This document shows positions 2,306-6,438 of a DNA stretch of 6,438 nucleotides, piece by piece. The stretch comes from a virus (lineage: Duplodnaviria; Heunggongvirae; Uroviricota; Caudoviricetes). The stretch's first letter is position 1. Each line of letters begins with the position of its first letter. The stretch lies in the IMG/VR virus record IMGVR_UViG_2671180547_000008. One strand, 5' to 3'. A program made the translations under genes and the position numbers. Below the pieces are notes generated by a model, which had not been told where the DNA came from, searched no databases, and was given only the letters and a program-made list of their open reading frames with translations.

Positions 2306-3127
2306 TTACCTAGTTACCTTTTTTAACTGCCGCTCAGCCCATGCTTCTTCAATATCAAACCGGGTCACCAGCGCATCATAAAATTTCTTAACTGTTTTTT
2401 CCCATGACGCGCGTGTTATCTGGTTTGTCACCTCGCATATAGCATTAAATGCCTCCGTTGATGGTAGTCTTTCATAGCCACGACCACCACAACGCTGGCA
2501 GTCTCTGATAACAGGCATACCACGTTTTACCGACTCTTCACGATGAATGGCGACACCACGCCCACGGCAATCCTTACAGGCGGTGGAAACCTCACCCTTT
2601 CCGCCACACTCCGGACAGGCAACTTTTACCACCTCCCTGACTTTTTTCCATTCTTCCCAGTAAGACGGATACACACCTTTCGTACACTTTGCCCATACCG
2701 GCGGCTTACCATCCGGATACTGGATCTTGTTTGTAAAAACCTCGCTTTCAATAAATTTTTTTCCGTGACAGCAGGGGCACTGTTTTTTGCTCGCCGCGCT
2801 ACGGGCATAATCTTCAAACGCATACGAAGCCATAATACGCATCACTGCCGGTTTTATTTCTGCCGGGAGTTTTCTTAACGCCGCCACGCGATCACACCGA
2901 CTGAGTGCATATTCTGTCAGCAATTCTGTTGCCCGCTCTCTGTCATTCATACTAATGCCCATTTTCCCAAGGAACGCAGAAACCCCCATCTCAGCCCGAT
3001 TCTGTGTCATGCCCTGCGCGGCCATCACATCAGTGATACTCAGCGCATCTTTCGACGTTGAGGCCGATGCATCAGTCAGGCCGGGGGATTTTGGGGAGTA
3101 GTATTTCGGTAAATCTTCCAGTTTCAT
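2306..3127 (-). CDS. Putative late-gene antiterminator (Q-like, QuuQ-type) with repeated CxxCxGxG zinc-finger motifs
   Basis: 273-aa ORF. Its ATG (3127-3125) overlaps the rusA stop as ATGA. It carries one CPCC and three CxxCxGxG motifs (CPECGGKG, CKDCRGRG, CQRCGGRG). Position after rusA and before a promoter-terminator pair matches Q genes of lambdoid phages. Identity is inferred from synteny and motifs, not alignment. Confidence 0.5.
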   Translation of the reverse strand: MKLEDLPKYYSPKSPGLTDASASTSKDALSITDVMAAQGMTQNRAEMGVSAFLGKMGISMNDRERATELLTEYALSRCDRVAALRKLPAEIKPAVMRIMASYAFEDYARSAASKKQCPCCHGKKFIESEVFTNKIQYPDGKPPVWAKCTKGVYPSYWEEWKKVREVVKVACPECGGKGEVSTACKDCRGRGVAIHREESVKRGMPVIRDCQRCGGRGYERLPSTEAFNAICEVTNQITRASWEKTVKKFYDALVTRFDIEEAWAERQLKKVTR

Positions 3128-3504
3128 TTTTTGACCTGCCCTTCAAGCATTATGGGATAAATCTTCACCCCCAGACGTCCACCAGATACTGGCTGAGCAC
3201 GAACGATATTGATTTCATCAAACTGCTCATCGTCCATTAGCAACCCCGCATGCGTCAGCGCATCCAGCGGCGCTTTCAGAATATTGTCCAGGTCACGGCG
3301 GCGCTTATCCGGTGGTTCTGCAATAATTTTTATTGCCAACCTTCCGGACAGGCTTAATTTCAGCCGCTGCTGGCGAACAATAAGCGCCACTGCCCGGCGA
3401 TAACGCTCCCCGGCTTTTGATACAAAATATGTGCTGCCACGACGACGCCAGTAAGTGTTCACCGTCGGCGGGTAAGGTAAAACAAATTCTATGCGCTCGG
3501 TCAT
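3124..3504 (-). CDS. rusA: RusA-type Holliday junction resolvase (crossover junction endodeoxyribonuclease)
   Basis: The 126-aa product has LPYPPTVNTYWRRRG, DKRRRDLDNILKAPLDALTHAGLLMDDEQ and VSGGRLGVKIY, which match the recalled RusA signature blocks ([48 protein letters not shown]). Its start follows the DUF968 stop directly (TAAATG). Confidence 0.9.
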   Translation of the reverse strand: MTERIEFVLPYPPTVNTYWRRRGSTYFVSKAGERYRRAVALIVRQQRLKLSLSGRLAIKIIAEPPDKRRRDLDNILKAPLDALTHAGLLMDDEQFDEINIVRAQPVSGGRLGVKIYPIMLEGQVKK

Positions 3505-4563
3505 TTATGCTTTCCACTTCAGAACACCCGAATTTCTCGCGTGCATTAAAAAACGAATCAGCAACAACAGCTGACTGCCGTGTTTCTCTTCAAAATCTTT
3601 TACTCCGGCATGTAGTTCGTTACGGCATTTACGGCATAACGGAATAACAAACAAATCATCAGCCTTTGTTCCCATCCCTCCCAGTCCATGACCAATGATG
3701 TGATGCGGATCATCTGCCTGATTGCCACACGTCATGCATTTCTGCGTTTTTACCCAGCGCGTGTATACAGGCATCTCTTCCCGTTGTGATTTCTGGCGCT
3801 GGAGATACTGAGCCGGTGACTCCGGATCAACGGCAATGCTGACCACCGTCTTTTCCTGTGGTGGGTTCTGTTGCTGGTGGACGTGAGGCAGTAACGCAAT
3901 ATTTTTTGTGCGCTGCTTCAGTATGCTGGTGGCTGTCTGCTCTCCCGGTATGATGTCGCTTTCACTGTACACAGAGCGAATTTTTTCCGCACGCAACCCC
4001 AGCGAACGACGTAATACCGCTTCCGGTAGCGCGTCCGCCACCTGATTGCGGACCGCCCACCAGGATAATTCAGCCAGAGATAATTCACGCTCCTGCGTAC
4101 CGCTTATTGCGTGACCGATGACGTCAATCATCCATGCTGACAGGTTTTGATGAGCAAGTTGCTCGAGTGATTCGGATGTCTGGTCACGCAGCTGGTTGTC
4201 GCAGTGCCAGCACAACACCATTGCGCCGGTACCATAACGGTGAATGACGGTTTCGCTGTGATGATAATCGCCGTGTGGCCACTGGCAGGATTTAATATGG
4301 CGCAACAGCCAGTCAGACAATGCACCAGCACCACCAGCAGCACGAATCACCCGTGCGTTACTGAAAAACGGCAGCAATGTTTTGTCTTCCACCAGCGGCT
4401 GGCGAGCGGCAGGAACGACCCCGGACGGCAGATTACGCATGCTTTTTGGTTCCGGCTCCACCAGTATTCTGCCGTTATGGAATGCTGACATTGATTCACG
4501 GCCTGGCTTAACGATAACCAGACCGAGTTCCGGTACCAGAACAGGTCGAAGTAATACCCGCAC
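3505..4563 (-). CDS. DUF968-like prophage protein (YdfU-like) with a C-terminal HNH/zinc-binding-like motif
   Basis: 352-codon ORF starting with GTG at 4563, 4 nt after GGAGG; an alternative ATG at 4491 gives MSAFHNGRIL. The C-terminus has CMTCGNQADDPHHIIGHGLGGMGTKADDLFVIPLCRKCRNELH (CxxC...HH...CxxC...H). Size and position between a small gene and rusA/Q match ydfU in Qin-like prophages as I recall them. Confidence 0.6.
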   Translation of the reverse strand: MRVLLRPVLVPELGLVIVKPGRESMSAFHNGRILVEPEPKSMRNLPSGVVPAARQPLVEDKTLLPFFSNARVIRAAGGAGALSDWLLRHIKSCQWPHGDYHHSETVIHRYGTGAMVLCWHCDNQLRDQTSESLEQLAHQNLSAWMIDVIGHAISGTQERELSLAELSWWAVRNQVADALPEAVLRRSLGLRAEKIRSVYSESDIIPGEQTATSILKQRTKNIALLPHVHQQQNPPQEKTVVSIAVDPESPAQYLQRQKSQREEMPVYTRWVKTQKCMTCGNQADDPHHIIGHGLGGMGTKADDLFVIPLCRKCRNELHAGVKDFEEKHGSQLLLLIRFLMHARNSGVLKWKA

Positions 4564-4564
4564 A

Positions 4565-4920
4565 TTACCTCCAGATCCGTTGCTGGAATGTGCGGGACGG
4601 ACGCGTTGGCCGTTCGGAGTAAGGGAGCCTGACGGAGATTATCCAGTGACGGTAGTCGAGGCTAAGGGCTTTTTTAACCTCGCATCCGCGCCTGCGGTAA
4701 CACTGAATGAGCCATTCGGCCTGTTCTTCAGTGCATGGGGGATGCTGGTACCAATCAGATTTAAATGCGTGAGAGCGCCGCCCGTGCCTGCTGGCAAAGA
4801 CGGCTGAATTATCAGAATTGTGTAGTCTGGAAGGCAGTGGCTGACAATAGCGCCATTCTCAACGCGCACAGTATAGAGGCCATCTTCACTAAAAATTTCA
4901 CGTAATTCTTCGATTTTCAT
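4565..4920 (-). pseudogene. Small nin-region gene with a frame discontinuity (rem-position gene); an intact 93-aa frame runs 4639-4920 but looks degenerate after about 40 aa
   Basis: ATG at 4920 has GGAAGGA 8 nt upstream. Frame 0 reads MKIEELREIFSEDGLYTVRVENGAIVSHCLPDYTILIIQPS, then turns low-complexity (LPAGTGGALTHLNLIGTS...). A second frame with no start codon reads ...TEEQAEWLIQCYRRRGCEVKKALSLDYRHWIISVRLPYSERP... and ends with TAA at 4565-4567, overlapping the DUF968 start region (GGAGGTAATGTG). Confidence 0.4.
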
Positions 4921-5003
4921 CAACAGAATCCTTCCAGATAAATAGCACTCCCCTGTTCGGGGTCCATCCCTCTTCTCCCTGCGCGCTACTTAAGTATTTT
5001 TGA

Positions 5004-5071: not shown

Positions 5072-5140
5072 TAAGTGTGGGTGCATTGAGGATGCCTGCC
5101 CCATCAGAGGTGGCGAGGGATTTCTCCCCCGCCTGGTCTC

Positions 5141-5296
5141 TTACTCCTCAGGTTCGTAAGCTGTGAAGACAGCGACCTCCGTCTGGCCGGTTCGAATTCG
5201 TACCTCGCAGAGGTCTTTCCTCGTTACCAGTGCCGTCACTATGACGGTTAAACAGATGACGATCAGGGCGATTAACATCGCCTTTTGCTGCTTCAT
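5141..5296 (-). CDS. hokD: Hok-family type I toxin (HokD/RelF-like, 51 aa)
   Basis: The product MKQQKAMLIALIVICLTVIVTALVTRKDLCEVRIRTGQTEVAVFTAYEPEE has the Hok single transmembrane helix and the conserved C-terminal pattern (compare Hok ...[26 protein letters not shown]), and matches my recollection of E. coli HokD. An in-frame upstream ATG at 5353 (MNGKSRLASYVPKGKEKQA-) occupies the position of the mok start in the R1 hok/sok leader. Confidence 0.9.
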   Translation of the reverse strand: MKQQKAMLIALIVICLTVIVTALVTRKDLCEVRIRTGQTEVAVFTAYEPEE

Positions 5297-5344
5297 AGCC
5301 TGCTTCTCCTTGCCTTTCGGCACGTAAGAGGCTAACCTAGATTT

Positions 5345-5425
5345 GCCGTTCATAGATTGAGCCTCAGATTAATGTTAAGCGTCTTGCCGGACGCGTAATG
5401 TTAACTGGGGCTTTTCTCTATCTGC
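5345..5425 (+). ncRNA. Candidate Sok-like antisense RNA with its promoter (-35 at 5310-5315, -10 at 5333-5338)
   Basis: The plus strand has TTGCCT, a 17-nt spacer and TAACCT, which aligns by recollection with the R1 sok promoter (TTGCGC, 17 nt, TATCCT). The predicted transcript is antisense to the mok-like start region and ends in a U-rich stretch (GGGGCTTTTCTCTATCTGCCTTTTGG). Exact 5' and 3' ends are not determined. Confidence 0.35.
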
Positions 5426-5472
5426 CTTTTGGTGTTCATGCCTGAGACAGATAGCCTCAAGCACCCGCTGCA

Positions 5473-5501
5473 ATTCTACTTAACTCTCCTTTTCCCGCAA
5501 A
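5473..5501 (-). promoter_or_regulatory. Candidate hok mRNA promoter
   Basis: Minus strand has -35 TTTGCG (plus 5496-5501), a 17-nt spacer and -10 TAGAAT (plus 5473-5478), followed by GCTTGAGGCTATCTG, which resembles the recalled 5' end of R1 hok mRNA (GCGCTTGAGGCTTTCTG). Confidence 0.4.
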
Positions 5502-5507
5502 CCGTTT

Positions 5508-5591
5508 TTATCCCCAGCGGCAAATCGAATACACCACCAGCGCCACCGCCATCGCAATTCCTACCGTTGTTAATGCTTCAGGCCAGGTCAT
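5508..5591 (-). CDS. 27-codon hydrophobic micro-ORF, translationally coupled to the 114-aa ORF
   Basis: Its ATG (5591-5589) overlaps the TGA stop (5590-5588) of the upstream ORF as ATGA. The product [27 protein letters not shown] has an 18-residue hydrophobic core with a basic/aromatic C-terminal cap, as in small membrane peptides. Below the ORF-track length cutoff. No homology evidence. Confidence 0.3.
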
Positions 5592-5932
5592 CGTAAAATA
5601 TCCTCCACGCTTATCAGTCCGTTCCGCTCCAGATAACTCATCGCCTTATCCGGTAATTTGCAGTCTGGCTTCGCTTTCCTCAGTTGCCAGGTTAACTGCT
5701 TTACCAGCATGGTTAACTCATCGACCAGACGCTGATATCCCACTGGTTTGTATTCATGCAATTTACCGGCTGGCTCTGCTGCCAGCGATACCAGTGCGAT
5801 TTCCAGAACAGCAATATCCATCTTATATGTGCGGATGATGTCATGGTCGATTGTGCCCGGTATGCACAGTCTCTGTGCTTCAATAGTCTCCTCTGCGTGA
5901 GCTATTAACTGCTCTCTGGTAAAAGTCGTCAT
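5588..5932 (-). CDS. Hypothetical protein (114 aa), paralogous to the upstream 55-aa ORF
   Basis: Its ATG overlaps the stop of the upstream ORF (ATGA at 5932-5929). The N-terminus MTTFTREQL... and the block [10 protein letters not shown]...EYK match MTTITKERI... and [10 protein letters not shown]...EKY in the 55-aa ORF. Amino-acid composition is protein-like. Confidence 0.55.
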
Positions 5933-6096
5933 GCCGTAGCCCCTTCTTGATATTTTTCAAACCAGAACACAACCGGCTCTGCTTCCAGCGATGCCAGCGC
6001 AATCCGTGCCAGTTCCATTTGTTCACCACGGGTAAGCCCGTTTTCAAGCGGGTTTTTAATGAACAATTCAATACGTTCTTTGGTAATAGTGGTCAT
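5929..6096 (-). CDS. Hypothetical small protein (55 aa), first gene of the coupled trio
   Basis: ATG at 6096 is preceded by a strong SD (TAAGGAG, 6 nt spacer). The product is [55 protein letters not shown] and its stop overlaps the next ATG. Not in the ORF track (under 60 aa). Confidence 0.45.
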
Positions 6097-6106
6097 GTGT
6101 TACTCC

Positions 6107-6305
6107 TTAACCCGCAGTGCTTTCAACTGATGAGGGGAACAAAATCTTTTCATCAAACCCTGCATTCATATCATGAACAGCAACACACCAATCCATCGAC
6201 GAACGATTATCAAGAGCCTCCATGATTTCATCCATGCGGCGTAGGTCATACAGGTAAATGCTTTTATCGCCAATGGTGTAAAAGCCAATTTTTTTCGGTG
6301 ATGGA
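6107..6305 (-). pseudogene. 3' remnant of a gene truncated by the right-hand IS insertion
   Basis: The frame runs from the IS junction to TAA at 6107-6109: ...KKIGFYTIGDKSIYLYDLRRMDEIMEALDNRSSMDWCVAVHDMNAGFDEKILFPSSVESTAG. The track ORF 6107-6337 only finds an ATG inside the IS, so the N-terminus is IS-derived. The SD of the next gene overlaps its stop, so it was once the upstream gene of that operon. Confidence 0.4.
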
Positions 6306-6438
6306 TGAGGTGTACTGGCAATAGCGGACACTACCATTTGTTCTTTTTTTAAGCAGCCATCTGATGATATTTTTCCCTGAAGGCTGCCGGGGAGATATTC
6401 CCCAGACGAGAGTGACGACGCTGACGATTGTAGAAAAT
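6306..6438 (-). mobile_element. Right end of a second, inverted copy of the same IS element, with the element body lying right of the window
   Basis: Exact reverse complement of 1-133. The plus strand begins TGAGGTGTACTGGCAATAGCGGACAC at 6306. Confidence 0.7.
6349..6438 (-). CDS. Transposase C-terminal fragment (partial at window edge), identical to the copy at 1-90
   Basis: Mirror image of 1-90; the stop codon is at 6349-6351 on the minus strand. Confidence 0.7.
   Translation of the reverse strand: MFYNRQRRHSRLGNISPAAFREKYHQMAA

Follow-up and report, generated by a model that had tools for sequence, protein, structure and literature searches.

Stop/start-overlapped small genes upstream of hok in a Qin-like prophage: probable mosaic cassettes that include a widespread 27-codon micro-ORF

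Three overlapping reading frames next to hok

The DNA considered here is a stretch of 6,438 nucleotides (the window) from the Caudoviricetes record IMGVR_UViG_2671180547_000008, and it belongs to a lambdoid prophage of the Qin type, of which it covers the Q-proximal part. Its subject is a trio of small open reading frames (ORFs), namely ORF1, ORF2 and a 27-codon micro-ORF (ORF3), that are joined head to tail directly upstream of a hok/sok locus (Table 1). The trio probably represents a set of separately exchangeable mosaic cassettes at the promoter-distal end of the early accessory array of a lambdoid prophage, a reading to which a probability of roughly 0.7 is attached. An earlier sequence-only reading of this DNA had described three minus-strand ORFs chained by ATGA overlaps, the first preceded by a strong TAAGGAG ribosome-binding site, and the sequence and the ORF list place every one of these features exactly where it had put them. 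Its further suggestion, that a small protein, a larger paralogue and a membrane peptide could together form a novel addiction, abortive-infection or anti-defence module, fares poorly, given that the parts are not inherited together but assort independently, and match no known system.

Because all three ORFs recur intact in many related loci, and the micro-ORF in addition shows frame-specific selection, they go beyond what chance would produce. The overlaps themselves say less: four-base junctions of the ATGA type are the norm in the same operon of an intact prophage (L001) and hence are not distinctive. Within positions 5100-6438 a crude consensus scan returned a single promoter-like site, at 6147-6174 on the opposite (plus) strand, where shuffled sequences give an expectation of 1.7, and one terminator-like site; neither count exceeds the shuffled expectation.

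Table 1. Coordinates of the trio, its translation signals and the surrounding features in the window
Feature	Position	Strand	Basis or remark
ORF1, 55 residues	5929-6096	minus	RefSeq WP_000207997, 'hypothetical protein'
ORF2, 114 residues	5588-5932	minus	RefSeq WP_000206826, 'hypothetical protein'
ORF3 (micro-ORF), 27 residues	5508-5591	minus	ORF list; start overlaps ORF2 stop (ATGA)
ATGA stop/start overlaps	5932-5929 (ORF1/ORF2), 5591-5588 (ORF2/ORF3)	minus	sequence
ORF1 Shine-Dalgarno, TAAGGAG	6103-6109	minus	6 nucleotides 5' of the ATG at 6096-6094
ORF2 Shine-Dalgarno-type, AAGGGG	5945-5940	minus	sequence
Micro-ORF Shine-Dalgarno, GGAGGA	5601-5606	minus	within ORF2 3' end; spacer of 9 nucleotides to the ATG
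Spacer, micro-ORF stop to hok/sok model	5467-5507	minus	promoter-like TTGCGG-16 nucleotides-TAGAAT; here the hok cassette, a unit apart from the trio, begins
hok/mok/sok type I toxin-antitoxin locus	5141-5466	minus	neighbour, outside the trio
hok/mok	5141-5353	minus	Pfam HOK_GEF, E=3e-23
sok	5291-5466	minus	Rfam RF01794, 112 bits
87-residue phage gene, 3' part	6107-6305	minus	PHROG match (phrog_1714; intact form WP_000224233)
IS3-family element end	6306-6438	minus	transposase C-terminus ...FYNRQRRHSRLGNISPAAFREKYHQMAA at 6438-6350
DUF968	3505-4563	minus	
RusA	3124-3504	minus	
Q	2306-3127	minus	
DNA methyltransferase	645-1733	minus	

The micro-ORF and its travels

The trio is of interest chiefly for its smallest member. 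Collected alleles of the micro-ORF number 65 at the nucleotide level and 40 at the peptide level, all of 27 codons; one allele carries an in-frame duplication of 6 nucleotides. Over codons 8-25, Nei-Gojobori counts along a minimum spanning tree give 97 synonymous changes for 15.2 sites and 99 non-synonymous changes for 38.8 sites, a ratio of non-synonymous to synonymous change (pN/pS) of 0.40; for the two alternative frames, interrupted by stops in 65 of 65 and 62 of 65 alleles, the ratio is 1.14 and 1.46. A GGAGG-like Shine-Dalgarno core is present in all 41 distinct upstream 25-mers. At the peptide level W3, P4, E5, A6, G11, Y21, R25 and W26 are conserved, and elsewhere one hydrophobic residue is exchanged for another. 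The frame and its ATGA start overlap are kept in related prophages and phages with synonymous change favoured, which agrees with the earlier treatment of the micro-ORF as a translated frame. Given that frame, length and start are all conserved and that the synonymous excess is confined to that one frame, the micro-ORF appears, on these comparisons of alleles, to be a real protein-coding gene. A conserved RNA element in place of an ORF was also considered and was rejected, being contradicted by the same frame-specific selection together with the absence of a stable RNA fold over the micro-ORF (z=+1.22).

The encoded peptide does contain the single hydrophobic span that had been predicted for it. 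The best 17-residue Kyte-Doolittle window scores 2.16 and covers residues 7-23, with E5 on its N-terminal side and R25 on its C-terminal side, and this arrangement of hydrophobic core, acidic N side and basic C side is conserved across the alleles. ORF3 would be best pictured as an early-expressed, single-pass inner-membrane micro-protein. In size (about 20-50 residues), single hydrophobic helix and charged ends it resembles Hok, Ibs, TisB, ShoB, KdpF and proteins of the AcrZ type, but the likeness is one of kind only: there is no sequence relation to type I toxins or to these small membrane proteins, and the peptide comes from a distal, translationally coupled cistron within a phage operon, with a plain Shine-Dalgarno sequence and a stop/start overlap as its translation signals. 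ORF3 has no match to HOK_GEF, whereas the neighbouring hok matches that family at E=3e-23. Searches of Pfam, NCBIfam and PADLOC with the micro-protein returned composition-level matches only, at E>0.01 (KdpF at E=0.12 and DUF883_C at E=0.029, both short of the cut-off), PHROGs held no family for five of its alleles or for a 45-residue extended form (P0408), and the literature yielded no match for the peptide string or the WP accessions. The micro-protein is an uncharacterised family of a known kind, that of small phage membrane proteins. A lipoprotein or spanin is unlikely, as by eye there is no N-terminal lipobox and the sole cysteine lies at position 24.

The micro-ORF is also common. A 90-nucleotide query recovered 3111 copies in 1635 of 5426 complete Escherichia coli genomes (about 30%), both chromosomal and borne by phage-plasmids, the lowest identity being about 79%, and the same query matched 88-94 phage records, among them 933W, VT2-Sakai, VT1-Sakai, Min27, BP-4795 and the virulent Avunavirus Av-05. 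Diverged copies, found in WGPS2 as well as in 933W/VT2-Sakai, VT1-Sakai and Av-05, hold exactly 27 codons and the overlapped start (for example MNWPEAFTAVGVAIAVAFILYSLFRWG, MTWPDAFAIVGVAMSIALIVFAICRWG, MTWPEAFTTVGVVMAVAFAVYSVCRWG and MSWPEAFTTVGIVMAAALGLYSICRWW). Further, the micro-ORF is located in the pL/exo-xis region as well. What lies on either side of it varies widely. Upstream stand at least 84 distinct proteins of 46-302 residues, each joined to it by a stop/start overlap, including the ORF2 family, DUF551 proteins, an ead-like protein and a 131-residue protein; their ends fall into five classes, which include the DUF551 end ...HWMPLPEPPQEVNQ and the ends ...ENDLKNIEQEVNR, ...AAMLKKKGMNQ and ...VIAGIGVEVK. 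Downstream, homology is lost immediately past the stop codon and at least 12 unrelated contexts follow, among them the hok promoter (about 55 of 138), a coupled DUF4222 gene (starting 4 nucleotides past the micro-ORF stop), a terminator and toxin-antitoxin-bearing DNA. From this distribution the micro-ORF appears to be a self-contained mobile cassette in which the 27 codons bring along their own Shine-Dalgarno sequence.

Several smaller observations attach to the micro-ORF. Virulent Vequintavirinae (Avunavirus) carry it together with an Eaa-like gene that has the same N-terminal hairpin as the proteins discussed below; the Av-05 copy (L215, 1501-1584) and a second Avunavirus copy (L216) differ by synonymous changes only. 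Given its presence in these virulent phages, the cassette is not confined to temperate ones. A diverged allele in four loci (L003, where it lies just past 3842, L012, L029 and L065) lacks one C at codon 2 (ATGACTGG vs ATGACCTGG), so that the link between start and frame is lost, and of its six other differences four are silent when read in the frame of the peptide. Annotation by RAST calls the shifted frame as a 36-residue protein. This allele adjoins an ORF2 that is 100% identical, and the pairing of a diverged allele with an identical ORF2 points to a crossover at the ORF2/micro-ORF junction. A few GenBank submissions list the exact peptides under the names 'prophage', 'bacteriophage' or 'hypothetical' protein, and RefSeq/PGAP and the phage records leave the micro-ORF unannotated. 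Among protein clusters at 90% identity the 27-residue peptides are filed under DUF551 representatives of 121-185 residues that do not contain the peptide, which looks like a clustering artefact.

Modular construction of ORF1 and ORF2

The two helical proteins were earlier called clear paralogs. Paralogy holds, at a modest level: BLASTP aligns them over 54 columns at 33% identity (E=1e-5), the shared module is N-terminal, and both match PHROGs 660, 60, 3323 and 5117. Neither protein had been recognised from its sequence, and no characterised family has emerged for either from Pfam, NCBIfam, PADLOC, the Protein Data Bank (PDB) or fold comparison, the PHROGs matched being of unknown function only. 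Pfam and NCBIfam gave no family for ORF1 or ORF2 at E<=1. ORF1 and ORF2 are new members of known but uncharacterised phage families.

ORF1 has a composite build. Its residues 1-41 share 90% identity or more with the N-terminal ends of proteins that go by the names Eaa, DUF550 or DUF551, and its PHROG matches (phrog_3323 at E=1.3e-19, phrog_60 at E=4.3e-18, and phrog_660) are to families without known function, while residues 31-54 match phrog_2118, an HNH endonuclease. The same tail (residues 41-55) also ends the HNH endonuclease that replaces ORF1 elsewhere. In a set of 81 loci selected by their ORF2 and not by the micro-peptide, the gene upstream of ORF2 is the 55-residue ORF in about 58, a 121-residue HNH endonuclease in about 20 and a 61-residue variant in 3, and all three types end in the same 15-residue tail followed by ATGA. 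Because the HNH-type tail is common to all of the genes upstream of ORF2 and matches the HNH PHROG, ORF1 is most readily taken as a recombination chimera in which an Eaa/DUF550/DUF551-type N-terminal helical hairpin has been joined to the 3' tail of an HNH endonuclease gene. The junction is a conserved 10-residue joint at the end of the hairpin, and the HNH-derived tail carries the ribosome-binding region of ORF2.

ORF2 begins with a hairpin of the same type. AlphaFold2 models it with a mean predicted local distance difference test score (pLDDT) of 77.7 and a predicted template modelling score (pTM) of 0.42, as a hairpin at residues 6-51 (pLDDT about 90), a disordered linker at 52-62 and a helical C-terminal module at about 63-114; this pTM is consistent with two independent parts. 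The C-terminal 45 residues (ELTMLVKQL..), with a motif that ends in EDxLR, close proteins of 50-389 residues whose bodies are otherwise unrelated, and in the family alignment it is the N-terminal and middle parts that vary. ORF2 matches phrog_660, to which no function is assigned, at E=8.2e-43, and 291 cluster representatives match it at E<=1e-3, including N15 gp45, ST64B Sb32 and H19J orf688. Other members show the same parts in other combinations. The ORF2 hairpin is fused to DUF551 domains in two proteins (P0064 and P0066), and a 101-residue protein (P0031) joins the ORF1 hairpin straight to the C-terminal half of ORF2, the product expected of a crossover between the paralogous joints of ORF1 and ORF2. 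Rare read-through fusions also occur, of ORF1 with ORF2 (167 and 168 residues) and of ORF2 with the micro-ORF (143 residues; P0001, P0002 and P0011 in all). The natural 55+114 fusion P0001, modelled by AlphaFold2 without an alignment as a pseudo co-fold, reached a pLDDT of 39, an uninformative result. Foldseek with the ORF2 model returned generic helical hairpins only (best E=0.98 in the PDB and 0.35 in BFVD, none below 0.3), and a profile search of PDB sequences gave no match.

The closest known counterparts are the early-transcribed Ea22, ead/Ea22-like and Eaa proteins of lambda and of lambdoid and P22-like phages, which share with the two helical proteins a modular build of N-domain, helical part and variable C-domain. 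Ea22, in which a short N-domain is followed by a coiled coil and then by a variable C-terminal domain, forms tetramers and favours lysogeny (PMC10834534, PMC7093339). The N-terminal module of ORF1 is that of proteins named 'Eaa protein', the C-terminal module of ORF2 is found on ST64B Sb32, which RefSeq names ead/Ea22-like, and genes annotated as EaA/Ea22 directly precede the micro-ORF in several phages. In contrast, neither ORF1 nor ORF2 matches the NCBIfam ead/Ea22-like model, both lack the C-terminal alpha-beta domain of Ea22, and they lie in the nin-side array instead of the exo-xis location of Ea22. Similarly, DUF551 (PF04448) and DUF550 proteins have the N-terminal hairpin module in common with ORF1 and ORF2, and in many phages such a protein is encoded immediately before the micro-ORF, across an ATGA junction like that of ORF2, but by Pfam neither domain is present in ORF1 or ORF2. 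In N15, gp45 (139 residues), which is related to ORF2 over its full length, hairpin and C-terminal module included, is likewise followed by an annotated, ATGA-overlapped micro-ORF, gp45.1 (L004, 2635-2691). As a homologue of the 27-residue peptide gp45.1 was nevertheless rejected: its 18 residues (MITTRKCMPAAAVSQETK) are unrelated in sequence and not hydrophobic. ORF2 itself is a minimal member of this group, comprising a hairpin, a flexible linker and a 45-residue C-terminal helical module, and belongs to the modular Eaa/Ea22-like kind.

Prophage setting, rival explanations and significance

By rising coordinate the minus-strand order in the window is methyltransferase, Q, RusA, DUF968, hok, the trio and a truncated 87-residue gene, and in the uninterrupted prophage of strain WP5-S17-ESBL-10 the array continues upstream with DUF4014, DUF977, replication genes, YdaT, Cro and CI. 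The promoter-like motif in the spacer below the micro-ORF, which the consensus scan did not flag, is a putative promoter of the hok mRNA. The block AAACGGTTTGCGGG co-travels with hok in at least 50 contexts and is missing from others. The earlier placing of relBE in this slot of E. coli K-12 Qin proved accurate, since the Qin order is ydfT-ydfU-rem-hokD-relE-relB. Like the trio, the relBE pair adjoins hokD on its upstream side, with the replication/regulatory genes on one flank and hok-DUF968-Q on the other, but it has no homology to the trio, whose own components are not co-inherited. On the far side of the trio, identity to L001 stops at 6305 and the IS3-family element begins at 6306; its insertion deleted the 5' end of the 87-residue phrog_1714 gene, which is intact in L001 and L003, and parts the trio from the prophage early promoter. 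Elsewhere in the window, a 94-residue ORF (4639-4923, minus strand) between hok and DUF968 occupies the position of rem in K-12 Qin, an STnc100 small RNA (Rfam, 123.6 bits; 312-501) and a tRNA-Arg(tct) gene (578-654) lie on the minus strand on the low-coordinate side of the methyltransferase gene, and 28 masked N at 733-760 produce a run of X in the methyltransferase translation.

In the account favoured here, that of exchangeable cassettes, the trio would be consecutive, translationally coupled cistrons of an accessory array of the 'ea/nin' type, situated between the replication genes and hok-DUF968-rusA-Q. The conserved 10-residue joint at the hairpin end would serve as the in-frame crossover point, and the micro-ORF would attach as the last stop/start-overlapped cistron behind many Eaa-type genes. 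The array would be transcribed from the phage early promoter upon infection or induction, and the micro-protein, made by coupled translation, would insert with its acidic N-terminus out and R25 in. There, in the early phase of lytic growth, it may target some membrane component of the host, in the manner of a small-protein modulator or of an exclusion-type factor, and the helical proteins might act as oligomerising adaptors by analogy with Ea22. The anatomy, mosaicism, conservation and selection set out above are observations; expression timing, membrane topology, target and biochemical role are what we infer from them. More specific versions are correspondingly speculative. That the micro-protein is a functional early factor of Shiga toxin (Stx)-converting coliphages and their relatives, perhaps a peptide of superinfection exclusion or anti-defence, or else a membrane anchor or partner for the variable Eaa/DUF551-type proteins, with the hairpin-only ORF1 able to titrate the hairpin-mediated assembly of its larger paralogue, is a doubtful proposition at present. 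On that view the micro-protein would have gone unstudied through being passed over by annotation pipelines.

A number of points weigh against the cassette account, or at least against a working role for its parts. A pN/pS of 0.40 is moderate only, and the alleles were gathered by a pattern that demands an open 27-codon frame, the scored codons 8-25 being unconstrained by it. The micro-ORF is frameshifted or carries a nonsense change in 7 of the 81 ORF2-selected loci (4 alleles), whereas ORF1 is open in all of them, and in POCJ13 the micro-ORF has a stop at codon 3; such disrupted alleles suggest weak selection in resident prophages. The peptide is not in the supplements of the small-ORF studies searched. 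Fold and profile searches came back empty for the helical proteins, whose role is wholly inferred, and ORF1 may perhaps be a non-functional scar. Finally, since the IS element cuts the array off from the early promoter, the copy of the trio in the window may itself be silent.

Three rival explanations draw on much of the same evidence. The trio as a single three-component addiction, abortive-infection or anti-defence system, in which the peptide is the effector and the paralogous helical proteins its regulator or antitoxin in a relBE hotspot, has in its favour the position directly upstream of hok where K-12 Qin holds relBE, the type II toxin-antitoxin pairs nearby in ArgO145 and N15, the tight translational coupling of the three ORFs and a small, hydrophobic, type I toxin-like peptide, and no known function from the Pfam and NCBIfam scans contradicts it. 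It is nonetheless highly improbable. An HNH endonuclease stands in place of ORF1 in about 25% of loci; the peptide follows 84 proteins with unrelated bodies, also far from hok or toxin-antitoxin loci and in virulent phages; the promoter-like and terminator-like sites stay within the shuffled expectation and ATGA overlaps are usual throughout the operon. A search of PADLOC-DB v2 gave zero families at E<=1 for all four proteins, and toxin or antitoxin homology for the trio was absent from Pfam, NCBIfam and PADLOC, as were PDB or BFVD fold matches at E<0.3. A second alternative places the activity in the micro-protein itself, as a putative membrane-damaging toxin (a depolariser like Hok, Ibs or TisB) or a superinfection-exclusion peptide, with the upstream genes as mere translational carriers. 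In size, in its one hydrophobic helix and in the placing of its charges it is like type I toxins and small exclusion proteins, it moves as a cassette that brings its own Shine-Dalgarno sequence, it occurs in temperate and virulent phages alike, and the frequency of disrupted alleles in resident prophages is what would be expected if leaky expression were costly. However, the antisense RNA, long structured leader and dedicated promoter of a type I system are missing, no Rfam family falls over 5508-5600, no stable fold forms, and there is no relation to Hok or to Pfam, NCBIfam or PADLOC models beyond the composition-level hits; this alternative is judged unlikely.

It might also be argued that the 27 codons are no gene at all, but a recombination linker at a module boundary or a translational re-initiation pad for the gene downstream. 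The micro-ORF does sit exactly at mosaic junctions, downstream genes such as DUF4222 do begin 4 nucleotides past its stop, its frame is broken in 7 of 81 loci, and neither RefSeq/PGAP nor the phage records annotate it. Against this stand the synonymous excess of its own frame (0.40 vs 1.14 and 1.46), a length that is invariant across copies 75-80% identical, the conserved tryptophans, charged residues and other fixed positions among substitutions that otherwise keep to hydrophobic residues, and the many contexts in which a terminator or the hok promoter follows instead of a coupled gene; taken together these make a non-coding linker or pad improbable.

Seen as a set of exchangeable cassettes, the locus carries a caution for the reading of prophages more generally, namely that overlapping small ORFs beside a toxin-antitoxin locus need not form a 'system'. 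It is also a clear example of how lambdoid accessory proteins are assembled, with N-terminal, C-terminal and micro-ORF cassettes swapped at short conserved joints. The micro-protein stands out for its prevalence together with its absence from standard annotation. If it is functional, RefSeq annotation, Pfam, NCBIfam and PHROGs have all missed a gene that about one in three complete E. coli genomes carries, and the phenotypes of ea/nin-region deletions in 933W, VT2-Sakai and VT1-Sakai may in part be its own.

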